DNA of 64,000 nt from Rickettsia typhi. GTDB taxonomy: Bacteria; Pseudomonadota; Alphaproteobacteria; Rickettsiales; Deianiraeaceae. The stretch spans positions 11,138 to 75,137 of the forward strand of contig CAMCQG010000001.1 of NCBI GenBank assembly GCA_945876965.1, given 5' to 3'. Under the pieces are notes generated by a model. The model was not told the origin of the DNA. It made no database searches and saw only the letters and a program-made list of their open reading frames with translations. Made by a program: the position numbers and the translations under genes. Below are positions 2,594 to 44,402 of the stretch, one piece after another (position 1 is the stretch's first letter; each line of letters opens with the position of its first letter).

Positions 2594-2668
2594 TGGAGCG
2601 GGTGAAGGGACTCGAACCCACGACCCTAACCTTGGCAAGGTTATGCTCTACCACTGAGCTACACCCGC
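2594..2668 (-). tRNA. tRNA-Gly (anticodon GCC), 3' CCA encoded
   Basis: The reverse complement is GCGGGTGTAGCTCAGTGGTAGAGCATAACCTTGCCAAGGTTAGGGTCGTGGGTTCGAGTCCCTTCACCCGCTCCA. It folds into a cloverleaf with a 7-bp acceptor stem, a GCTC/GAGC D stem, a TAACC/GGTTA anticodon stem with loop TTGCCAA, and a TTCGAGT T loop. There is one U-U mismatch in the T stem. Confidence 0.9.
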
Positions 2669-4646: not shown

Positions 4647-6116
4647 TCATAAAGATGTTATAGTTATATCGGTGCTATTTTCTCTTTGTAAAAATTTTTC
4701 TACTGCATTACCAGAAAAACCTGCCCTTCTCTCGCTTAGCTGTTTTTTCTTACAACAACATTTACTTTGCCTACAAGCTAAGCATAAACCAAGCATTGCA
4801 AGAGTTAGCGTGGCGATAGGAATCCTGGCCCAAAGAGGTAAAGGATTCATTTTAAATCTTGGTTCTTGTTTGTGCGATATTTTTTCATTGCTCAAAACTA
4901 CATCATCTGAAGCTAAATTTTTGTCAACAGAATGTGCATTGGGTTTAAGCTTTGATTCTTTTGCATATGGTAAATTGCTATACATAATATCTGAATGTAA
5001 ATTATTGCAATTATCAGTATTAAAAATCCTACCAGAACTATCTTTTTTTTCTTCTTCTTGGGTCTTATAAGTATCAAAAATGCATCCTCTATATTGATTT
5101 CGAGCAAGCGTTTTAATTCCATTAATTTGCTCATATCTAGCGTTATCTTCTTTTGATCCATTTTTTAAATATTCTATATTCTCTGTAAAATATTTTGGAT
5201 CAATTGGATATGCATAATCTTGTTTATAATACTTAAGGCAGTTAATTATATTGATTTTATCGCCAGTTCCTTCGTATTGCAATACTCCGTCTGCTACGGC
5301 TTTAAAAAGTAAATATTTTGTCAAATCATTTTCTTTAACAAAATTTATCAGTTTTTGGTTGTGCGGAGGTTTTGCATATTTATTTTGTATATCCGTAATA
5401 TCAAAAAATGTCAATCCTTTGTGCAAAGCATCTTCATATTCGTTATATATTGATTGAAGTTTTTGTACCTGATTTTGTGGTATATTTTGTATAATATTAT
5501 TGCTTGGATCTAGTACATATGCAATTGTTGGGCCGTTAACTGTATTAAAATCTTCATGGCAATACGACATAATAGAATTGCATTCGTAATCTTTTCCCCA
5601 AGACTCACTAGTTATTGTGCAGTCTTTTAGACTATTTTCTATTCCATTAAAATTATGAGCAAAACCTAGCCAATGAAGAACTTCGTGCATTTCAAAATTA
5701 TTAGCATGGGTTATGTTGTTGTTTGTATTATAGGTGATAGTGCCATCCCCTATATTCATATCTCCATAATATATTGCATTTTTACCTTTATATGGAATTA
5801 GCTTAGGATCATTTATAAAATCAATTTTTATCGCATTAAGATCTTGATTTTGATTTAATACAATCCCACCATTTGTGATTTTTTCCAATGTTGTTATTGT
5901 TTTAGCTAAATTATCCTTAGAATTTTTAACTAAATTATCATTTTCTATCGTATTATCTTTAAAGGTTGCATTGCCAATTTTTATTGGAATATTGCCGTTT
6001 TTATCAAATTTTATTTGTTTGAAGGTCGCCAACTTAAATAATAAATCTAAATAATTATCATCCGCCTTATTAAGAATATCCAACCTACTATCCCCCTCTT
6101 CTATTTTACCGCCCAT
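4647..6116 (-). CDS. metzincin-type zinc metalloprotease with a C-terminal membrane anchor
   Basis: HEVLHWLGFAH matches HExxHxxGxxH, with a downstream Met-turn-like SIMSY. No N-terminal signal peptide is seen. A hydrophobic segment PLPLWARIPIATLTLAMLGLCLA followed by CRQSKCCCKKK lies near the C-terminus. Confidence 0.6.
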   Translation of the reverse strand: MGGKIEEGDSRLDILNKADDNYLDLLFKLATFKQIKFDKNGNIPIKIGNATFKDNTIENDNLVKNSKDNLAKTITTLEKITNGGIVLNQNQDLNAIKIDFINDPKLIPYKGKNAIYYGDMNIGDGTITYNTNNNITHANNFEMHEVLHWLGFAHNFNGIENSLKDCTITSESWGKDYECNSIMSYCHEDFNTVNGPTIAYVLDPSNNIIQNIPQNQVQKLQSIYNEYEDALHKGLTFFDITDIQNKYAKPPHNQKLINFVKENDLTKYLLFKAVADGVLQYEGTGDKINIINCLKYYKQDYAYPIDPKYFTENIEYLKNGSKEDNARYEQINGIKTLARNQYRGCIFDTYKTQEEEKKDSSGRIFNTDNCNNLHSDIMYSNLPYAKESKLKPNAHSVDKNLASDDVVLSNEKISHKQEPRFKMNPLPLWARIPIATLTLAMLGLCLACRQSKCCCKKKQLSERRAGFSGNAVEKFLQRENSTDITITSL

Positions 6117-6145: not shown

Positions 6146-6811
6146 CTATTGAGCTATTTGTTTCTGATGCATACAGATAATTAGATCTAATATGCTGTAG
6201 ATTTGCATTGCCTGAATTTTTTTTAAAAACTCTAAATCGGCGCCTTCAAATTTATCTGTATTATTGGTTTTTTTATCGCCACAAACAATATTCAAATTAT
6301 TTTGCTGACCATTCAATGTGCTGTTATACAGATTTTGTCCGTTAAAATTTCCATTTGATATCCAATCGTTATAGACCTGAGAACCAAGACTGTTGTTGTG
6401 TGTGGCAACTGTTGTGGTGGATTGTGCTTTGGTTGGTATAGGGTTGCAATTTGCAGTTGCAAGAACACAAGATAAAATTAACATCATTATAATAATTTTA
6501 TTAGGAGCGACACCGCTATGATTTGTTTTAAAATATTCAGATAAACCTTGTATTTCGGTATTTTTATTATTAGCTGGGTTAATATTATAAACATTATGCA
6601 ATTCATTTTCACTCATTTGCAACATTGCTTTTGTAATAGAATCTATTGTTTTTAAGCTACCATCTGCATGAACTGCTTCAACCCATTTTTGAAATTTATC
6701 TTCATGCTTGGCTGTATTTAATTCAATTTTTTTCTGTATATCTCGTCTCTGTTTGTCGAATGTTTTGATTCGTGGAAAAGATTTTAAAAAATTATTATGA
6801 TTGTTTGGCAT
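6146..6811 (-). CDS. hypothetical membrane protein with an N/Q/T-rich C-terminal part
   Basis: 221-aa ORF with a central hydrophobic stretch KIIIMMLILSCVLATANC. No motif recognised. Confidence 0.35.
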   Translation of the reverse strand: MPNNHNNFLKSFPRIKTFDKQRRDIQKKIELNTAKHEDKFQKWVEAVHADGSLKTIDSITKAMLQMSENELHNVYNINPANNKNTEIQGLSEYFKTNHSGVAPNKIIIMMLILSCVLATANCNPIPTKAQSTTTVATHNNSLGSQVYNDWISNGNFNGQNLYNSTLNGQQNNLNIVCGDKKTNNTDKFEGADLEFLKKIQAMQIYSILDLIICMHQKQIAQ

Positions 6812-6860
6812 AGATTGGTAAATTAATATAATAACATAGTTTTAAATTTTACAAGGCAAT

Positions 6861-6960
6861 CAAGTTATAGAACCTATAACATACTGCATAACACCGCCAG
6901 CCTTATAATATTCTGCCTCATAAAATGTGTCAATTCTGCATTTTAAGTCAATGTTTTTGA
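6861..6960 (-). pseudogene. remnant of the acnA 3' end (orphan C-terminal fragment)
   Basis: The reverse complement reads ...VKNIDLKCRIDTFYEAEYYKAGGVMQYVIGSIT-stop. This is near-identical to the C-terminus of the intact acnA at 8057-8160, but there is no acnA body upstream. Confidence 0.75.
6876..6960. repeat. direct repeat, left copy (acnA 3'-end sequence)
   Basis: 85 bp matching 8076-8160 with 4 mismatches counted by eye. The offset is exactly 1200 bp. Confidence 0.9.
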
Positions 6961-7038
6961 CAAAATTATCATCTTGCATTGATTCCCTGATAGAAATATT
7001 TTTTCTAAGGATTAGTGTTTTGTGTATCGCTATCATAA

Positions 7039-8073
7039 TTAATGTGTTAAAATTTTGTTTAATTGTTTTACAAAATCTGTCGTATCTAAAAAATAATTTG
7101 GATATGCTTTTCTCAATTTTTTAATATCATCAATTTTAATTAAAACAATATCATTTTGAACTCCATTTAAAATACCTTGCTCGTGCATTTCATATGCTGT
7201 ATTTGCATCATCTTCTTTTTCAATTAATATATATCTTGTTTGATTATTTGCTATATCTATTATTAATAAAACAAATTTTAACTTTTTTAATTTATTTTCT
7301 TTAATCGTTTTACCGAGTTCACTAACAAATGCTATCTTTTCTTTTACTTTCAGCTCCTTTTCTTTTTTGATTATCAATCCCCTAATTTCTGCCTCTAATA
7401 AATTTTTATGAGCCTCTAAAACAGGTTGTTTTTCTTGCAACGCAAATGCTGAACTTACGAGTGCAAAAAAATCTAACCATTCTGGATCTTTGTTATCAAA
7501 TTTTAATGATTTGTTTAGTATTGTATCAACGGTTTCAACGGCTGTTGCCCAAATATGTTGCAATTCTGTTCTAAATTGAATTTCAATTTGTAGACCATCA
7601 TATAGTGGACTAGGATATTGTGTTTTATAAACTAAATGTATTCCACGATAACCTGTATCCTTTGGTTTTGTAATGTAATCAAGTTGTCTTTTTAAAATTT
7701 GTTTTGTTTTTTTATTTGCAAAAATACTAACCAAATATCTAACTTCTTCTACATTTTTTACAATTATTCTAAGTCCACCAATATCTTGCATATCAGATAA
7801 CTTGCCTTGGTATCTTACTGATGAAATTTTATTAAGAATTGTTGGCATTCTTTTTAATCTTTGAGTAACAATATAATCTTGGTTGATTCCTTTGTTTTCT
7901 TTTATACAACGATTTAAAGATACTTTAAATCGATTAATAACATGCGTATGCAATCTTCTCCAAGAGGCAATTTTATTAAAAGCATCTTTATTATTGTAAT
8001 CTGCTTTTAAAATTTGCCCAGCTTCGTTCAAATCTTTATTTGATATTCTTACCATATCAATCAATTTTACCAT
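7039..8073 (-). CDS. stand-alone RelA/SpoT-domain protein (small alarmone synthetase / toxSAS-like) with an uncharacterised ~130-aa C-terminal domain
   Basis: DIGGLRIIV...KPKDTGYRGIHLVY...LQIEIQFRTELQHIWATAVE is the nucleotidyltransferase core of (p)ppGpp-synthetase-fold proteins. No hydrolase (HD) domain and no TGS/ACT domains are present. The ATG at 8073 overlaps the acnA stop by 17 nt. Confidence 0.8.
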   Translation of the reverse strand: MVKLIDMVRISNKDLNEAGQILKADYNNKDAFNKIASWRRLHTHVINRFKVSLNRCIKENKGINQDYIVTQRLKRMPTILNKISSVRYQGKLSDMQDIGGLRIIVKNVEEVRYLVSIFANKKTKQILKRQLDYITKPKDTGYRGIHLVYKTQYPSPLYDGLQIEIQFRTELQHIWATAVETVDTILNKSLKFDNKDPEWLDFFALVSSAFALQEKQPVLEAHKNLLEAEIRGLIIKKEKELKVKEKIAFVSELGKTIKENKLKKLKFVLLIIDIANNQTRYILIEKEDDANTAYEMHEQGILNGVQNDIVLIKIDDIKKLRKAYPNYFLDTTDFVKQLNKILTH

Positions 8074-10660
8074 TCATAACATACTGCATAACACCGCCGG
8101 CTTTATAATATTCTGCCTCATAAAATGTGTCAATTCTGCATTTTAAATCAATGTTTTTAACAGAATCGTCTGCATAAATAATCGTGCAATTAACTGTTTT
8201 ATTTGTTAATATATCATCAATTTTTGGTATTGCAAAACTAAATTTTTCATCACCTTTTAAATTGAGGGTTTTGCGAGTATCTCCGTTTGTAAATTCAAAT
8301 GGTAAAACGCCCATTCCAACCAAATTTGAACGATGAATCCTCTCAAAAGATTCAACAATAACTGCTTTAACACCCAAAAGCATCTGACCTTTTGCCGCCC
8401 AATCACGAGACGATCCACTGCCATATTCTTTGCCTGCCACAATAACGAGAGGTGTTTTATCGGCAATATATCTCATTGCAGTATCATAGATAGAATCTGT
8501 TGTTCCGCTAGGTAAATGAACGGCTAATGGCCCATCAAGACTTATCATTTCGTTTTTTATGCGAACATTTGCAAAAGTACCTCTCATCATAACTTCGTGA
8601 TGACCTCGTCTTGTGCCATAACTATTAAAATCTTTTTTGGTAATTCCAAAGGAATTTAAATATTTTGCAGCTGGTGAATTTTCGGCAATGTTTCCGGCCG
8701 GAGAAATATGATCGGTGGTTATTGAATCGCCAAGCATTGCCAAGCATCTTGCATTTTCGATTTTGACTTCGGTAGTTTTTTTGATATTTTCAAAATAGGG
8801 CGGATTGGCAATATACGAACTTTTATCCCATTCGTAGTTTTTGCCAGTTGGTGCTTCGATTTTTTTCCATTCATCAGATCCAGATAAATCAGCATATTTT
8901 ATAATAAATGTTTCGCGTTTGACCGATTTTGCAATTGTATCAGCAATTTCTTGGTTGCTTGGCCATAAATCTTTTAAAAATATACCACCACCAAAATCTG
9001 TTTTTGTGATATCAAGCCTTACAGAGCCTAGCAAACTATAAGCCACAACAAGGGGAGGTGATGCCAAATAATTTGATTTAACTAGTGCATGAATTCTGCC
9101 TTCAAAATTTCGATTACCAGATAAAACGCCTGCAACATTCAAGTTTTTTGATTTAATATCGGCTTCAATATCCGCATTTAAAGGTCCAGAATTGCCAATA
9201 CAAGTCATGCAACCATATCCTGCAACAAAAAACCCAAGTTGGTTTAAATATTCTTGCAAACCAGAATCAATTAAATATTGCCCAACAACAGTAGACCCGG
9301 GCGATAAAGTTGTTTTGACAAATGGTTTAACTTTTAAACCCATTTCAACTGCTTTTTTTGCAAGCAATCCAGCCCCAATTATAACCGACGGATTAGATGT
9401 GTTCGTGCAAGAAGTAATCGCTGCAATTACCACGGATCCATCTTGTAAAAGATTATTATTGGATATTTCAGTTTTGCATTCTGCATTAAAATTGTCGGCA
9501 ACATCTTTTAGAACAATTCTATCTTGTGGGCGTTTTGGACCAGCAACTGATGCCTCTATTGTAGATAAATCAAGACTCATAATATCGGTATAAACAGCAA
9601 TAATATCGTCGTTACGCCACATTTGATTTGCTTTTGCATACCCTTCAACGGTTGCAATTTGCTCATCGCTTCTCCCCGTTAAATGAAGATATTTTAATAC
9701 TTCGTCGTCAATAGGAAACAAACCACAAGTAGCTCCATATTCAGGTGCCATATTAGCAATTGTAGCCCTGTCTGCAAGACTAAGATTATCTAATCCGTTG
9801 CCAAAAAATTCAACAAATTTGGCTACAACTCCTTTTTTACGAAGCATTTGGGTAATTGTCAAAACAACATCTGTTGCCGTTATTCCTTCTTTTGTTTTAC
9901 CTGTCAATTTGACACCAATAATTTCTGGCTGAACCAAACTAATTGCCTGACCTAAACTAACGGCTTCAGCTTCAATTCCACCCACTCCCCAGCCCAAAAC
10001 TCCAAGTCCGTTTATCATAACGGTATGAGAATCGGTGCCAACAACGGTATCAGGATACAATATATTATCTTTTTCAAAAACAACTTTTGCTAAATATTCT
10101 AAATTAATTTGATGACAAATTCCAACTTCAGGCGGAACAATAGTCATATTATTAAAAGATTTTTGTGCCCATTTAAATAATCTATAACGCTCTTTATTAC
10201 GACCAATTTCTAATTCGCTATTTTTATGCAAAGCATCAGAAGTTCCATAATAATCAGCCTGAATTGAATGATCAACAACCAAATCAATTGGCACAAGTGG
10301 ATTTACTTTATCTGCATTACCACCATTTTTAACAACAAAATCACGCATTGCAGCTAAATCTACAATTGCTGGAATTCCAGTAAAATCTTGCATTAAAACC
10401 CTAGATGGATAATATGAAAGCTCAACATCGCCTTTGCCTTTATTTGACACCCATTTAACAAAATTTTCAATTGTTTGCACCGTTATATCTTTGCCATCTT
10501 CAAATCGTAGTAAATTTTCTAATAAAATCTTCATTCCAAATGGAAATTTTGCAATATCTACACCTAATTTTTGTGCAGCTTTTTCAATATTATAAAAACT
10601 ATATTCTTTGCCATTAATAACTGTTTTATCTAACGAATTTAACGAATTTAAACTTGCCAT
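8057..10660 (-). CDS. acnA: aconitate hydratase A
   Basis: 867-aa ORF with hallmark aconitase blocks: GTDSHT, ITSCTNTSNP, CMTCIGNSG and the swivel-domain GSSRDWAAKG. Confidence 0.95.
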   Translation of the reverse strand: MASLNSLNSLDKTVINGKEYSFYNIEKAAQKLGVDIAKFPFGMKILLENLLRFEDGKDITVQTIENFVKWVSNKGKGDVELSYYPSRVLMQDFTGIPAIVDLAAMRDFVVKNGGNADKVNPLVPIDLVVDHSIQADYYGTSDALHKNSELEIGRNKERYRLFKWAQKSFNNMTIVPPEVGICHQINLEYLAKVVFEKDNILYPDTVVGTDSHTVMINGLGVLGWGVGGIEAEAVSLGQAISLVQPEIIGVKLTGKTKEGITATDVVLTITQMLRKKGVVAKFVEFFGNGLDNLSLADRATIANMAPEYGATCGLFPIDDEVLKYLHLTGRSDEQIATVEGYAKANQMWRNDDIIAVYTDIMSLDLSTIEASVAGPKRPQDRIVLKDVADNFNAECKTEISNNNLLQDGSVVIAAITSCTNTSNPSVIIGAGLLAKKAVEMGLKVKPFVKTTLSPGSTVVGQYLIDSGLQEYLNQLGFFVAGYGCMTCIGNSGPLNADIEADIKSKNLNVAGVLSGNRNFEGRIHALVKSNYLASPPLVVAYSLLGSVRLDITKTDFGGGIFLKDLWPSNQEIADTIAKSVKRETFIIKYADLSGSDEWKKIEAPTGKNYEWDKSSYIANPPYFENIKKTTEVKIENARCLAMLGDSITTDHISPAGNIAENSPAAKYLNSFGITKKDFNSYGTRRGHHEVMMRGTFANVRIKNEMISLDGPLAVHLPSGTTDSIYDTAMRYIADKTPLVIVAGKEYGSGSSRDWAAKGQMLLGVKAVIVESFERIHRSNLVGMGVLPFEFTNGDTRKTLNLKGDEKFSFAIPKIDDILTNKTVNCTIIYADDSVKNIDLKCRIDTFYEAEYYKAGGVMQYVMNGKID
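8076..8160. repeat. direct repeat, right copy (the authentic 3' end of acnA)
   Basis: Matches 6876-6960; see the left copy. Confidence 0.9.
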
Positions 10661-12034: not shown

Positions 12035-13645
12035 TCATTTTTTAACAACTCCGCCGTTCACTTTAATTTCAAAAATCTCAACCGCCTCAATTCCATCAAC
12101 GGTTATTGCCTTGATTGCAATTTTATGCAAGCCTTCGGCAAATGTCCATTCTTCGTTTGGTTTTCCGTTTAAAATTTCGGCTTCAAAACCTTTGTTCTCG
12201 TCAAAATCAATGTCATATTGCCAAACTTCAATTTGTTCGGCGGCCGTGCAATCAAACCTAACAATTCTCTCGGTTTCTTTTTTGCCTTGCCCCACAAATG
12301 CTACTTCAACCCCAATTTTTGGCTTTTTACCAATTGGCACAATTGTGGCAACTTCTACCAGTTCTATAATTATTTTTTCTTCTAATTTTAGCCTTGCAAC
12401 CTCCTCTTTTGCACCCTTGCCAAACGAAAATGCAATTATGCTGCCAATTGATTTTTTGTCTGCAATTTGCTTGGCTAATTTGTCTTTTAACTTTGCCGTA
12501 GATTTGTAATATCGTTGAAAATCATAAACCGTTTCGTCAACCACATTTCGCCCGATATTCTCGCTCCGTTTAACTTGAATTGGCTTGTGTTCGCTGTCCC
12601 TTCCGTCAATTCCAAAGTCGCCAATTTGCCTGTCGTTGCCTTCGCCGCCAAATTTTTCAACGATGAACTTTTCAAAAGCTAGGTCTTTCATTCCAAATTT
12701 TTTGTCAAACAAATAGTCATAATCGTATTTGTGAGTTTTAACCGCAAATCCATCAAAATGTGCCTTATATTCCAAATCGCAACCGATTCGCTCCAGCCTG
12801 CCTTGTGTAACCTTTGTGGCAATAATCGATTGATCAATGCCTATAAATTGCCGTTTCAACTTTGCCGCCACCGCCACCGTTGTTCCCCCGCCCACAAACG
12901 GATCCAGCACGATGTCTCCTTCGTTCGACGATGCTTTTATTATTCGTTCAAGTAATGCCTCTGGCTTTTGCGTTGGGTAACCTATTCTTTCTTTTGCAGA
13001 TGATTGTATTGAATTAATATCAATCCACCAATCTTCTGGTATCTTTCCTTCATCTATATAATATCTATAATATTTATAATTTCCATTTTTATCTTTACTG
13101 CCTTGTTTTTCAACATATTCTCTTCCATTTTCATCTACACCCATTTTACCACCATAATTATTTTTAGAAGAAGATTTATGAGTAGTCATTGATATAGATA
13201 CATCTTCGGCATTAAAATTCCATTTATTACTTTTTACATAAAAGAAAATTGAATCGTGCTTTCTAGCATAATTATTTTTTGATTTACCGCCAGTACTATA
13301 ACACCAAACAATCTCATTCCTAAAATTCTTATCCCCAAAGATTGGATCCAAAATTTGCACCCTAATATAGGCATCTGCGTGCCAGTCGCAATGCAGGTAA
13401 ATTGAGCCTGTTTTTTTAAGTATTCGGTGAATTTCTTCAACTCGTTCTCTAAGCCAGCCGATATAATGGCTCATTCCACCGCTCCACCTATCTTCAAAGC
13501 TGCGTTTTTCACCGGCATCGCCCCAAATAACCTCGTAGTTTCGGTTGCTAAAAAACGGCGGATCAAGATAAATCAAATCTACCGATTCACTTGGCAAACC
13601 TTTTAAAATCTCTAAACAATCCCCGTGATATAGTGTATTTTGCAT
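12035..13645 (-). CDS. beta-class N6-adenine/N4-cytosine DNA methyltransferase fused to an Mrr-like PD-(D/E)xK nuclease domain plus an extra C-terminal beta-rich domain
   Basis: Motif IV LIYLDPPFF lies near the N-terminus and motif I VLDPFVGGGTTVAVA near residue 250, which is the beta-class order. Next comes GDFGIDGRDSEHKPIQVKRSENIGRNVVDE, matching the Mrr catalytic pattern D...GIDG...QxK. About 100 further residues are unassigned. Confidence 0.75.
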   Translation of the reverse strand: MQNTLYHGDCLEILKGLPSESVDLIYLDPPFFSNRNYEVIWGDAGEKRSFEDRWSGGMSHYIGWLRERVEEIHRILKKTGSIYLHCDWHADAYIRVQILDPIFGDKNFRNEIVWCYSTGGKSKNNYARKHDSIFFYVKSNKWNFNAEDVSISMTTHKSSSKNNYGGKMGVDENGREYVEKQGSKDKNGNYKYYRYYIDEGKIPEDWWIDINSIQSSAKERIGYPTQKPEALLERIIKASSNEGDIVLDPFVGGGTTVAVAAKLKRQFIGIDQSIIATKVTQGRLERIGCDLEYKAHFDGFAVKTHKYDYDYLFDKKFGMKDLAFEKFIVEKFGGEGNDRQIGDFGIDGRDSEHKPIQVKRSENIGRNVVDETVYDFQRYYKSTAKLKDKLAKQIADKKSIGSIIAFSFGKGAKEEVARLKLEEKIIIELVEVATIVPIGKKPKIGVEVAFVGQGKKETERIVRFDCTAAEQIEVWQYDIDFDENKGFEAEILNGKPNEEWTFAEGLHKIAIKAITVDGIEAVEIFEIKVNGGVVKK

Positions 13646-14867: not shown

Positions 14868-15647
14868 TTATAAATAAGGGTTTGTTATTTTTTCACCGTT
14901 CACATCAACAATGTCAGGTAATTTTGTCTGTTGCAAATGCACTTCGTTAATACGAGAAATACCAATTTTTGCATCATTATTTGTATATTCTGTTTCGTAA
15001 TATTCGGCAAGAGCCTGCCTAATTTCAAACGGAACTTTATCGGTTGTAGGTGGCATAACAAAACGAATTTTTGTTTTTAACCCACATTCTTTAATTGTTT
15101 TAATTACGGGGATAAAATCTGTATCGCCAGAACAAATAATAACTCTACTTGGTTTGTATAAAAAACAATCTCTAATTATAGCACAAGCAAGATTTGTATC
15201 CGTTTGTTTTTCGTCATATTCAAACCATTTTTGTGCTTTGCAAGATGGGCATTCAAGACCCTGATGATAACATTTTTTGCAATTAATATATCTTTTTTTA
15301 AACTTACCTTCAATTATTTTTGCTCCCAAAAAATTTTGCACTTTTGAATAATTATCATGCCTTATTAATTTTGAACCATCATCAAAAATATGTTCTGGTC
15401 TAGAAGTAAAAAAATTTACATCTTGTAATACTTCGTTTGGAGCCAAAAAACAAGACATTAATGCGGGCAAAGAAACCCATTTTAAATGAGGATTTTTAAG
15501 TTTTTGAACCTGATGATATAAATTAAAACCATCAATATAAGCAAAAACACGGGCTAAACCAAATGAATCAACCGAATTGTTCTCAAATGGACGGCCACCC
15601 GTCGAGCGTTTCGTATTGTCGTTGATATTATCATTCATAATTGTCAA
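14868..15647 (-). CDS. NYN (LabA-like, PIN-fold) domain protein with an inserted Cys4 zinc ribbon
   Basis: AYIDGFNLYHQ (N-terminal acidic motif), EKQTDTNLA, ICSGDTDFIPVIKTIKECG (the GDxDF motif), and the insertion CKKCYHQGLECPSCK. Confidence 0.7.
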   Translation of the reverse strand: MTIMNDNINDNTKRSTGGRPFENNSVDSFGLARVFAYIDGFNLYHQVQKLKNPHLKWVSLPALMSCFLAPNEVLQDVNFFTSRPEHIFDDGSKLIRHDNYSKVQNFLGAKIIEGKFKKRYINCKKCYHQGLECPSCKAQKWFEYDEKQTDTNLACAIIRDCFLYKPSRVIICSGDTDFIPVIKTIKECGLKTKIRFVMPPTTDKVPFEIRQALAEYYETEYTNNDAKIGISRINEVHLQQTKLPDIVDVNGEKITNPYL

Positions 15648-18513: not shown

Positions 18514-19569
18514 TTATATAATATTGTTATCAATCAGCTTACTATTTAAATCATTAATCAGTTCAACCTCGGTTTTTCCTAATCTTATAGAATTTGATAT
18601 ATCGTAAATACCAGTGTGTTGAGATGAATTTTCGCCATTTGCACCCCTGATTTGCAAACCAATTTCTTTAAATTTATTTTTATAATCAGTCAAATTAGAA
18701 TTATTAATTTTTGGATAATCAACCATAATACTTGCACGCATACCTGTGCCAATATTTGTAGGGCAACTAGCTAAATATCCTAAATTTTTATCAATAGCAA
18801 ATGACAATTTTTTTTGAAGATATTTACTTGCTAAATCAATTTTTTTTAATGCATTATAAAAATCATAACCTTCATAAATAGATGTTATCCTTAAATGATC
18901 TTCTTCGTTAACCCAAATCGCAAGATGTTTATCGTTAGAAATAAAAATACCTCTTCCAACAGGATAATCATCTGCTATTCCAGCTGATGTTAAGTATTTA
19001 TCGGTAGTTAAATCCTGAAACAAAAGATGTTCTTTGGTAAGCATATCTTTTTCCTCATCAGAAAGTTTTGATAAAGAGTAGTATTTTCCCTTTAAATCAC
19101 CCTCAAAAGAATCAAATATAGAAACTATAATATTTTCAGAATCTATTCTATCTTTTTTTGTCATTTTTGCAGGAAAATTAAAGCTAGATAAATTTCTTAT
19201 CACTCTAATTCTTGTTGATATAACGGTATTTTTAACCTTGTCAGATAAAACATTTAACTTATCAGGGTTTGTATTAAAATATTGAAATGTTTTTAGGGGA
19301 TCTTTATGATGATATAATTCAACAACATTGTTAAAAAGTTCCGAAAAAACAAAATAAGAATCTTTGTTTGCCGCATAACATCCTATTTTGCTATCAGGAT
19401 TTTCGGTTCCCGATTTTAAGATATATTTTAAATCTGTGCCATCCTTGGTTTTTATATCCCATATTTTTTTATCCAATCTATCTGCAATTTCGATGCAAAG
19501 TGGCTGACTAGCATAAGAATTATGTACTAAAAATAACAAAAAAAATGAATAAAAAAATGCCATTAACAA
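18514..19569 (-). CDS. phosphagen (arginine/creatine-type ATP:guanidino) kinase with an N-terminal signal peptide
   Basis: CPTNIGTGMRAS active-site signature, VNEEDHLRITS, LQIRGANGE and YDISNSIRLGKTE. The N-domain block LKSGTENPDSKIGCYAANKDSYFVFSELF matches arthropod-type arginine kinases. The first ~21 aa MLMAFFYSFFLLFLVHNSYA look like a Sec signal. Confidence 0.85.
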   Translation of the reverse strand: MLMAFFYSFFLLFLVHNSYASQPLCIEIADRLDKKIWDIKTKDGTDLKYILKSGTENPDSKIGCYAANKDSYFVFSELFNNVVELYHHKDPLKTFQYFNTNPDKLNVLSDKVKNTVISTRIRVIRNLSSFNFPAKMTKKDRIDSENIIVSIFDSFEGDLKGKYYSLSKLSDEEKDMLTKEHLLFQDLTTDKYLTSAGIADDYPVGRGIFISNDKHLAIWVNEEDHLRITSIYEGYDFYNALKKIDLASKYLQKKLSFAIDKNLGYLASCPTNIGTGMRASIMVDYPKINNSNLTDYKNKFKEIGLQIRGANGENSSQHTGIYDISNSIRLGKTEVELINDLNSKLIDNNII

Positions 19570-43343: not shown

Positions 43344-43988
43344 ATGACAAAAAAAAGACCAATTGATATGACAGGTGATGAGCTTCAGGAGCATAACTTA
43401 AATATAGACCCAAGAGCATTTGCTAACGAGATTTTAGATGCTTGCAAAAGATTGGGATTTATTAAATTTACTCATTTATCTTTTCAAAAATGGCTTTATT
43501 ATTGCTATGCAGTGTCTGTTTGCGGAACACAAAAGTTCCCATTTTTACCAATAGATAGTAATCGTAATATGAATATTGATTTTTGGAAATTCGGCCCAGT
43601 ATGTGTTCCAGTTTATAACGAATTTAAAAATTTTAAAAATAGACCATTGGTGCAAACATTAGATGATTATGACAAAATAGAAATTGATGATGACACTGAA
43701 ATTGATGATAATTTTAATATCATATATAAAAAATGTATTATGCCAGAATCGGAATATAAAAATAGTATCGTAAATGCAATATATCAAGTTCTTATTGGTC
43801 TTAGCGAACATAAATCACATCAATTAGTATGCAAAACTCATAGCCCAAATTCAGCTTGGACACAATTTTTTTCAAAAGATCAAGAAAAAGCTAATCCCCA
43901 AATATTAGAATGTATTATGAACGAAGCACAACATTATGGATACTTTATGGATTTGTGGAAAGAGAATTTTAGCAAATTTAATGATTAA
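43344..43988 (+). CDS. Panacea (DUF4065, SocA-like) domain protein, antitoxin-like
   Basis: LSFQKWLYYCYAVSV and FWKFGPVCVPVYNEFKNF match the KLQKLLYy and W-x-x-GPV-x-x-x-Y blocks of DUF4065. Confidence 0.7.
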   Translation: MTKKRPIDMTGDELQEHNLNIDPRAFANEILDACKRLGFIKFTHLSFQKWLYYCYAVSVCGTQKFPFLPIDSNRNMNIDFWKFGPVCVPVYNEFKNFKNRPLVQTLDDYDKIEIDDDTEIDDNFNIIYKKCIMPESEYKNSIVNAIYQVLIGLSEHKSHQLVCKTHSPNSAWTQFFSKDQEKANPQILECIMNEAQHYGYFMDLWKENFSKFND

Positions 43989-43991
43989 TTT

Positions 43992-44402
43992 ATGGTAGAT
44001 GAAAATATAATTAATGGTAATCCAAGACCAAGAAAGCAATCAGGAAAAACCAAAAATTTTGCTAGCGATTTTAATAATCAGCTTGAAGATGATGCCACTA
44101 TTCAAAATATAGCCAATAAAATATCTAAATCACAAGATTCTGTTGTATTAATAGCAACAGAAATTAATAGACATAATATTAGTCTAGAAAATAAAACACT
44201 AAAAGAAAAAATAGAAAGTTATTTAATAGTCTTCTCTATATTAGGTGGTGTGCTTGTAGGTTTGTTGGCACTTGCGGCATCGTTTTATGTTAGCTACTCT
44301 GCATTACAAAGGGAATTTTTGCAAACAAAAATAGAACAACAAAATGAACGAATAAAAAAATTAGAACAAAATCAAAATCCATTCTTACAACTTATTCGTT
44401 AA
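43992..44402 (+). CDS. small single-pass membrane protein, putative partner (toxin candidate) of the Panacea-domain protein
   Basis: Starts 3 nt after the previous stop. The TM helix is LIVFSILGGVLVGLLALAASFYVSY, followed by a short coiled-coil tail. Confidence 0.45.
   Translation: MVDENIINGNPRPRKQSGKTKNFASDFNNQLEDDATIQNIANKISKSQDSVVLIATEINRHNISLENKTLKEKIESYLIVFSILGGVLVGLLALAASFYVSYSALQREFLQTKIEQQNERIKKLEQNQNPFLQLIR

Follow-up and report, generated by a model that had tools for sequence, protein, structure and literature searches.

A CapRel-type fused toxin-antitoxin gene behind acnA in an uncultured lake alphaproteobacterium, with alleles that point to exchange of the sensor segment

Introduction

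What is a gene with the RelA/SpoT synthetase fold doing at the very end of acnA, a gene of the tricarboxylic acid (TCA) cycle, and why does one segment of it differ so much between strains that are nearly identical on either side of that segment? The gene is located at positions 7039 to 8073 of a stretch of DNA of 64,000 nucleotides (called here the window; contig CAMCQG010000001.1, positions 11,138 to 75,137 of the forward strand) that comes from an alphaproteobacterium found in lake water. A preliminary description, made from the letters of the DNA, had guessed that it was a fused toxic small alarmone synthetase (toxSAS) similar to CapRel. The guess is supported by the PADLOC profile, by phmmer, by the AlphaFold2 model compared through Foldseek and by the key residues, all of which agree. 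Our preferred reading, to which we give a probability of roughly 0.8, is that the gene codes for a CapRel-family immunity protein, with toxin and antitoxin fused in one chain, that would work by the mechanism proposed below, that it was inserted at the end of acnA and that its sensor is exchanged between strains.

Few bacterial immune proteins have been shown to recognise a phage protein directly. CapRel proteins are among them, and the surface residues that set their specificity are an active question. In CapRel-SJ46 a YXXY motif in the C-terminal domain blocks the ATP site, a phage protein (the major capsid protein) opens the enzyme, and tRNA is then pyrophosphorylated at its 3'-CCA end and the infection aborted (Zhang et al., 2022, PMC9712102).

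A member of the CapRel family

The gene and its parts are the following.

7039 to 8073, minus strand: fused CapRel-type toxSAS gene, 344 residues, or 338 residues from an alternative ATG at 8055 (list of open reading frames (ORFs), PADLOC, phmmer, AlphaFold2, Foldseek).
7543 to 7863, minus strand: toxSYNTH (RelA_SpoT) catalytic core, residues 71-177 (PF04607), including R72, D97, R102, Y142 (codon 7648-7650) and E164/Q166/R168.
7138 to 7410, minus strand: hypervariable sensor segment, residues ~222-312, two helices and then a strand-strand-helix-strand pseudo-zinc-finger (drop in DNA and protein identity, AlphaFold2).
7039 to 7137, minus strand: conserved C-terminal anchor, the YXXY motif and the terminal helix (alignment to CapRel-SJ46).

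RelA_SpoT (PF04607, residues 71-177, E 1.2e-17) is the single Pfam domain in the 344 residues, and the motifs of the synthetase core that had been described were found in place, GYRGIHLVY at residues 141-149 and EIQFRTELQHIWA at residues 164-176. Neither HD nor TGS nor ACT domains were detected by Pfam, in agreement with the earlier claim that hydrolase and regulatory domains are absent. A long Rel/RelA/SpoT enzyme was rejected as a candidate, since Pfam found no HD hydrolase and no TGS/ACT in the protein.

Similarity to CapRel extends over the whole length. The PADLOC model PDC-S33 matched residues 8-342 of the protein to profile positions 6-342 of 349 (3.1e-99, well outside what chance would give), and the same model was the sole PADLOC match (2.5e-81) of residues 36-367 of CapRel-SJ46, a query reconstructed from the phmmer alignment to 7ZTB. 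When phmmer was run against the PDB, CapRel-SJ46 (7ZTB, 9ERV) came first (9.5e-35), over query residues 28-339 and including the C-terminal KAYPNYF; enzymes of the RelQ/RelP type appeared at 1e-12 or weaker, over the core only, and RelA structures at E ~0.7. The identity to CapRel-SJ46 by BLASTP was 31% (E 5e-41). The family is large (6914 proteins at E<1e-5 among 8000 candidates examined), but the only close relatives in the protein collection were P0002 (72%) and P0003 and P0004 (both 68%), with the next match at 44%. Beyond this clade, at identities of 44% or less, the relatives include metagenome-assembled genomes (MAGs) of Desulfobacterota, Bacteroidota, Firmicutes and Gammaproteobacteria. 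Others were found in 234 viral stretches of IMG/VR (32-39% identity). A 40%-identical relative (L164) lies within a prophage together with portal, terminase, integrase and RecT genes, and a 44%-identical one (L163) is a lone gene amid housekeeping genes. By sequence and predicted structure the protein belongs, over its full length, to the fused CapRel family. That the gene is a further member of an already known family is by itself unsurprising and leaves the understanding of the family unchanged.

The AlphaFold2 model, made with an alignment of 120 sequences, had a mean predicted local distance difference test (pLDDT) of 90.3 and a predicted template modelling score (pTM) of 0.88. After the synthetase core it has two long helices, a strand-strand-helix-strand unit and short C-terminal helices (helix 227-254, strands 267-273 and 278-284, helix 287-302, strand 307-313), and the pLDDT of these C-terminal elements was ~86-92. 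The topology is that of the pseudo-zinc-finger of CapRel-SJ46, where a helix is located between strands 2 and 3 of a three-stranded sheet (PMC9712102). In the Foldseek comparison with the PDB the best three matches were CapRel entries, with 7ZTB on top (E 4e-22, template modelling (TM) score 0.69, ~352 aligned columns), and RelQ/RelP were matched at ~1e-9 over ~190 columns, in the N-terminal half only. The root mean square deviation from the open crystal form of CapRel-SJ46 was 9 Å at a TM score of 0.69, which is compatible with a different domain arrangement.

The preliminary description had allowed that catalytic residues might turn out to be missing. They are conserved on alignment, R72, D97, R102, Y142 and E164/Q166/R168 being invariant columns among the 120 sequences of the family alignment. 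R72, R102 and Y142 correspond to R79, R116 and Y155 of CapRel-SJ46, of which R79 and R116 coordinate the adenine and Y155 is the tyrosine of the G-loop (PMC9712102). The autoinhibitory motif A323-Y324-P325-N326-Y327-F328 (codons 7093-7104) is equivalent to A351-Y352-P-N-Y355-F of CapRel-SJ46, from which the function of the YXXY in autoinhibition and neutralisation is known (PMC9712102), and is nearly invariant family-wide. At the docking interface, V338/L339 of CapRel-SJ46 are found as V310/L311.

A RelA_SpoT domain that is intact in all its catalytic residues, in a gene that abuts the TCA cycle gene acnA in the same orientation, would also be expected of a housekeeping small alarmone synthetase (SAS), either similar to RelQ, RelP or RelV or belonging to the rickRel group specific to Rickettsiales. 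Such an enzyme would synthesize (p)ppGpp in a stringent-type response, and the coupling to acnA would be a form of metabolic regulation. The Rickettsiales do carry lineage-specific groups of SAS and of small alarmone hydrolases (SAH), rickRel and rickSpo (PMC3153485), and the spoT/relA background of Rickettsia type that had been invoked for this protein is plausible. The comparisons point elsewhere. The NCBIfam equivalog for YjbM (NF053588) gave 61.3 bits for a cutoff of 320, over residues 67-183 only, so that the grouping with RelQ, RelP or RelV, named beforehand as the outcome that would speak against a toxSAS, was not found. RelQ and RelP (YjbM/YwaC), which are tetrameric (p)ppGpp synthetases, share the synthetase fold over about 110-190 residues and, unlike the window protein, have neither the N-terminal helical extension nor the C-terminal sensor. 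Their structures cover the core only, with E-values at least 20 orders of magnitude weaker than that of CapRel by our count, whereas the C-terminal 130 residues of the window protein align with the CapRel antitoxin domain, including the YXXY. The taxonomically mixed character of the nearest relatives outside the clade would argue, indirectly, against a rickRel identity. Besides, a housekeeping enzyme is not expected to drop to an identity of 25-34% in a single segment when the strains compared share 99% in the rest, and the nearest relative of acnA in the genome collection (L035, see below) does not have the gene. We regard a housekeeping synthetase as most improbable and the CapRel assignment as the one to follow.

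Variation between alleles

The window protein (P0001 in the database) and its three close relatives are taken here as alleles of one gene. P0002 and P0003 are encoded in contigs (L081 and L082, respectively) of two metagenome assemblies of the European Nucleotide Archive (ENA), where the acnA end, the CapRel gene and a remnant ORF of 58 residues follow each other as in the window; L081 extends further, into a homologue of the window ORF 6146-6811. This shared layout indicates that the insertion predates the split of these strains. P0004, available as a protein, is a fourth allele and carries yet another sensor. The ORF was intact in 4/4 alleles, with lengths of 335, 347 and 341 residues in P0002, P0003 and P0004.

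The differences among the four alleles are concentrated in the sensor segment, with a protein identity of 23-34% there versus 85-99% in the N-terminal part. P0002, P0003 and P0004 were 98-99% identical over residues 7-221 and 25-34% identical over residues 222-312. The same is seen in the DNA. Between the window and L081/L082 the identity falls to ~50%, with indels, in the stretch 7410-7110 and is 85-100% either side (~90% in the C-terminal tail). L081 and L082 were 100% identical over 750 nucleotides (window-equivalent 8238 to 7489), then ~50-60% over ~300 nucleotides, then again 90-100%. In the comparison of L081/L082 with the window, the last 102 codons of acnA had a synonymous divergence (dS) of 0.22 and a nonsynonymous divergence (dN) of 0, the two contigs being identical to each other over their 59 shared acnA codons. 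The N-terminal 215 codons of the CapRel gene had a dS of ~0.4-0.45 and a dN of ~0.08, i.e., an omega of ~0.2. Overall, omega in the N-terminal part was ~0.07-0.2, which denotes purifying selection and indicates that the genes are maintained.

The AlphaFold2 model of the P0003 allele (pLDDT 90.9) has the same topology plus one extra helix, suggesting that the sensor segments are divergent versions of one domain and not unrelated inserts. This region is also the least conserved part across 116 distant members of the family, which agrees with Zhang et al. (PMC9712102). A tblastn search of the rest of the 64-kb window for silent copies of the sensor found none, which argues against a library of cassettes within it, and a scan of the metagenome collection with a profile of the four alleles gave no further alleles. 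The mosaic structure of the alleles, as read from these alignments, indicates modular exchange of the sensor. A diversity-generating retroelement was considered as well but is not supported, since the alleles differ by indels and by all base types and the window ORFs scanned with Pfam contained no reverse-transcriptase domain.

Public sequencing runs provided a view of the populations. The lake-water metagenome X1 contained 98% of the words of the window at ~11-12x, and other lake, freshwater and estuary runs contained part of them. X1 also had a minor junction contig of the L081 type, so both types were present in one sample. In the lake run X3 a contig equivalent to 7541-8179 had 76 differences from the window and the L081 base at 28 of the 29 listed variants, while another contig, equivalent to 6919-7545, had 7 differences from the window where L081 has 146. 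The depths of the two were alike (3.4 and 3.7), and there was no sign of a competing allele. The word shares go along with this: those of the window sensor (sensor A) were 0.93 in both X3 and X4, and those of the window N-terminal type (type A) were 0.04 in X3 and not found in X4. X3 appears to contain a recombinant, with the toxin half of the L081 type and the sensor of the window, if both contigs come from one genome. Separately, in runs X5 and X12 low-depth contigs (2-3.5x) covering window positions 7776-8175 were ~98% of the window type in the N-terminal part and yet had the L081 base at 8044 and at 8051, which hints at more mosaicism on a small scale close to the 5' end of the CapRel gene.

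We propose, tentatively and with a little less than even odds, that the acnA-linked locus is a natural site of sensor swapping, where the toxin half and the anchor would act as homology arms for alternative pseudo-zinc-finger domain (pseudo-ZFD) modules of ~300 nucleotides, exchanged among co-occurring strains of a lake bacterium that is uncultured, Rickettsiales-like and probably associated with eukaryotes. The exchange would be adaptive in that different strains differ in their recognition specificity.

The insertion at the end of acnA

The surroundings of the gene contain the following features.

8057 to 10660, minus strand: acnA (aconitate hydratase), with its last six codons and stop (MNGKID*) beyond the repeat, within the inserted segment (ORF list).
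8076 to 8166, minus strand: copy 1 of a direct repeat; it forms the functional acnA 3' end and lies immediately upstream of where CapRel starts (repeat search).
6876 to 6966, minus strand: copy 2 of the direct repeat, duplicated from the acnA 3' end and displaced to the downstream side of the CapRel gene (repeat search, 95% identical to copy 1).
6860 to 7036, minus strand: ORF of 58 residues, 23 novel codons followed by the duplicated AcnA C-terminus, beginning 2 nucleotides past the CapRel stop (ORF list).
8105 to 8133, minus strand: sigma-70-like promoter-like site TTGACA-17-TATTAT (11/12), inside repeat copy 1 (consensus scan only).

The CapRel gene lies in an inserted segment of ~1.2 kb, at the extreme end of acnA and flanked by duplicates of 91 nucleotides of the acnA 3' end. 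The repeat-bounded cassette of the preliminary description was thus borne out, and the CapRel ORF is all that the segment contains. The stretch of copy 1 was identical across the window, L081 and L082. The two copies of the window have four differences in their shared coding part, all of them at synonymous third positions, a pattern that would fit two diverged acnA alleles, one of which arrived with the insert, and not the decay of a fresh duplication. The displaced copy terminates in IGSIT*. In the species-representative genome set the closest AcnA (74%) belongs to an alphaproteobacterial MAG, L035, where it ends in ...GGVMQYVLKHN* with truB directly after it and without a CapRel gene.

Neither an integrase nor a recombination (attC-like) site was found in or beside the 1.2-kb segment, the neighbouring ORFs had no integrase domain, and the repeat search showed no notable inverted repeat at the segment ends. 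An excision joint between the two repeats, as would result from deletion of the cassette, was not seen in the contigs of four lake runs, and contigs cannot show absence. The metagenome collection was also scanned with a 39-nucleotide pattern shared without change by all six acnA repeat copies; it yielded nothing and thus no uninserted empty site. A protein search with the C-terminal 249 residues of AcnA found nothing above 65% identity and was of no help for uninserted acnA variants.

Two claims about the immediate neighbours held only in part. The overlap of 17 nucleotides with acnA is real if translation begins at the ATG at 8073, and disappears with the second ATG at 8055, located 1 nucleotide past the acnA stop (TGAtATG). 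P0001 to P0004 all begin at the start equivalent to 8055, and an exact look-up of the 344-residue product had no match, the database form being the 338-residue P0001. With either start codon the gene would be tightly coupled to acnA. As for the claim that no antitoxin ORF is adjacent, the 58-residue ORF is there immediately past the stop, but it is not a recognisable antitoxin. It is open in the window, in L081 (1323-1499) and in L082 (1230-1391), with few amino acid changes and differing tails, and is probably a remnant and not a gene.

Co-transcription with acnA, which had also been proposed, is supported by the gene layout and by a contig derived from RNA that crosses the junction. This contig, of 240 nucleotides and depth 9, was found in the estuary metatranscriptome X22, has L081-type bases and covers 7994-8203 across the acnA stop and the CapRel start, i.e., it runs from inside acnA, upstream of the promoter-like site, into the CapRel gene. 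No terminator-like hairpins were found between 6000 and 11500, so none separates acnA from the CapRel gene. The promoter-like site is 32-50 nucleotides upstream of the two possible CapRel start codons, and a second copy is found at 6905-6933 (minus strand), in repeat copy 2 and upstream of ORF 6146-6811. With the site in both repeat copies, the duplication may have supplied a promoter to the inserted gene and to the displaced one. The arrangement of the letters suggests that the duplication of the acnA end kept a promoter ahead of both.

Flanking repeats of 91 nucleotides resemble the footprint of an integration or of a single-crossover insertion, and the segment has no integrase or other mobility gene. 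Both facts would suit a selfish module (for addiction or stabilisation), or the decaying remains of one, left behind after a mobile element had integrated at the 3' end of acnA and having no current role in phage defence. The window without visible phage genes would suit it as well, and so would a host-associated life of the bacterium, in which phage exposure is thought to be low. Against this, the ORF is intact in every allele, purifying selection acts on the N-terminal domain, none of the catalytic and autoinhibitory residues has been lost and the acnA/CapRel junction is present in a metatranscriptome. Above all, the replacement of the sensor and nothing else between conserved flanks is hard to explain without selection on recognition. 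A selfish module or relic is in our opinion unlikely, and a maintained immunity gene is the better account of the locus.

Proposed mechanism

The mechanism that we propose follows CapRel-SJ46. The N-terminal toxSYNTH domain would be a pyrophosphokinase of the RelA/SpoT fold that passes pyrophosphate from ATP on to tRNA at its 3'-CCA end and so stops translation. At rest the C-terminal pseudo-ZFD would be folded back, with the YXXY (Y324/Y327) plugging the ATP/adenine site between R72 and R102. A protein of the invader, bound to the variable pseudo-ZFD, would hold the enzyme open, turning the toxin on and aborting the infection. Expression would take place together with acnA or from the promoter-like site in the repeat. 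At the level of the population, the toxin half and the anchor would be kept and the sensor segment of ~300 nucleotides would be swapped wholesale by recombination, providing strain-specific recognition. We infer tRNA as the substrate, a phage protein as the trigger and abortive infection as the outcome by analogy with the homologue.

Several points weigh against this scheme. Toxicity, substrate, trigger and defence are all taken from CapRel-SJ46, a homologue that is 31% identical, and two interface positions of the latter are changed (T70 for A77 and K313 for A341). The full alleles known are four only, and the recombinant haplotype of X3 consists of two separate low-depth contigs (3.4-3.7x) that we assume to be one genome. 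The X22 library may contain DNA, and its contig is of the other allele type. No phage or prophage genes were seen among the ORFs of the window, and we know of no documented phage pressure for the host lineage, an apparently reduced and possibly eukaryote-associated alphaproteobacterium.

A third possibility is that of a functional CapRel-type switch with a trigger other than a phage structural protein, such as a protein of a conjugative element or of a competing symbiont, or a factor of a eukaryotic host. CapRel-SJ46 is reported to sense two unrelated phage proteins (PMC11578894), so that the range of triggers is flexible. The window encodes an E3 ligase with leucine-rich repeats and a NEL domain (LRR-NEL) and the type IV secretion system (T4SS) part VirB9, both suggestive of an intracellular or host-associated life. 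Positive evidence for such a trigger was not found, however, relatives of CapRel are common in prophages and, to our knowledge, every characterised member of the family responds to phage proteins. We consider a trigger of this kind very unlikely and keep a phage protein as the preferred one.

Like CapRel-SJ46 (from Salmonella phage SJ46; PDB 7ZTB, 9ERV; Zhang et al., 2022, PMC9712102), the window protein is one polypeptide with N-terminal helices, toxSYNTH, two anchor helices, pseudo-ZFD, YXXY and terminal helix. Both match the same PADLOC model, keep the R/R/Y active site and the AYPNYF, and have the C-terminal domain as their most variable part. The window protein is 28 residues shorter, in addition to its low identity and the two interface changes given above. 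CapRel-SJ46 is prophage-borne, whereas the gene described here is chromosomal, behind a TCA cycle gene and between repeats derived from acnA, in an uncultured, AT-rich lake alphaproteobacterium. CapRel-Ebc and CapRel-SJ46 are a natural pair of homologues in which the C-terminal region is far more divergent than the remainder and sets the phage specificity (PMC9712102). Their identity is 70% over the whole protein and 47% for the C-terminal region, while between alleles of the window locus it is 98-99% for the toxin half and 25-34% for the sensor. Here the breakpoints in the DNA are sharp, which indicates segment replacement and not the graded divergence of that pair.

Other relatives differ in their architecture. 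The bicistronic CapRel/PhRel toxSAS-antitoxin pairs (Jimmy et al., 2020, PMC7229694) belong to the same toxSAS clade and share the logic of a neutralising partner, but their antitoxin is a separate gene; the window protein is fused, and the small ORF downstream is a fragment of AcnA and no antitoxin homologue. FaRel2 and other toxSAS that pyrophosphorylate tRNA (Kurata et al., 2021, bioRxiv 10.1101/2021.04.30.441581) would share the presumed chemistry at the 3'-CCA end. They are of a different subfamily with a separate antitoxin, and no full-length similarity to them appeared in the PDB searches.

What the locus adds is threefold: the sensor is cleanly replaced, as a module, among near-identical alleles at one fixed chromosomal site, the insertion behind acnA is flanked by repeats, and the host lineage is unusual. 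It provides at least four natural sensor modules, on a toxin half in which three of the alleles share 98-99% identity, together with a probable recombinant, a material that otherwise comes from hand-built chimeras. If the sensors are indeed swapped, bacteria with reduced genomes would be under strong and changing pressure from phages (or other invaders), and a natural panel of sensors on one isogenic toxin scaffold would be ready for use. The finding also extends CapRel-type systems to an AT-rich alphaproteobacterial lineage that has been sampled poorly and may be host-associated; the gene lies there amid core metabolic genes and not in a prophage or defence island. The short duplicated gene end on both sides of the insert, which may give each of the two genes downstream a promoter, illustrates on a small scale how a gene for defence can come to lie behind an essential one and leave it undamaged.

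Host lineage and other genes of the window

The GC content along the window was 26-37%. Apart from L035, the AcnA sequences of Wolbachia and Deianiraea were 56% identical to that of the window. MurA had relatives at 97, 79, 78 and 71% and then at ~52-56% with mixed labels, including MAGs labelled Rickettsiaceae bacterium and Pseudomonadota bacterium. The gene content comprises TCA cycle and respiratory genes, VirB9/CagX, a secretin, a protein of the LRR-NEL E3-ligase type and a phosphagen-kinase-like protein. A Rickettsiales-like host with a eukaryote-associated lifestyle is plausible.

The LRR-NEL (novel E3 ubiquitin ligase) protein has 847 residues (24457-27000, minus strand), is similar to IpaH/SspH and would target a eukaryotic host. 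The CagX/VirB9-type T4SS component (31353-32114, plus strand) adjoins the secretin-family protein (32187-34001, plus strand). An ATP:guanido phosphotransferase (18514-19569, minus strand) has N-terminal and catalytic domains and is phosphagen/arginine-kinase-like, not McsB-like, a type that is unusual in bacteria. A protein of 489 residues (4647-6116, minus strand) had no Pfam match, but its HEVLHWLGFAH fits the metzincin pattern HExxHxxGxxH and it has a hydrophobic, Cys-rich C-terminal tail; from these features it may be a secreted or membrane metalloprotease.

Two more genes with PADLOC matches are located less than 8 kb from the CapRel gene, although acnA and adk intervene: an N6/N4 DNA methyltransferase of 536 residues (12035-13645, minus strand; MTase_II, 6.9e-71) and a NYN-domain protein (14868-15647, minus strand; HEC-09, 2.2e-30). 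HEC-09 reportedly gave no protection in its original test. Farther away, a protein with a SocA/Panacea antitoxin domain (43344-43988, plus strand, 3.1e-6) is followed 3 nucleotides later by an ORF of 136 residues without Pfam match (43992-44402, plus strand), and the two could possibly form a toxin-antitoxin pair of the PanA type. The sole Rfam match in the 64 kb was a tRNA gene at 2597-2668 (minus strand).

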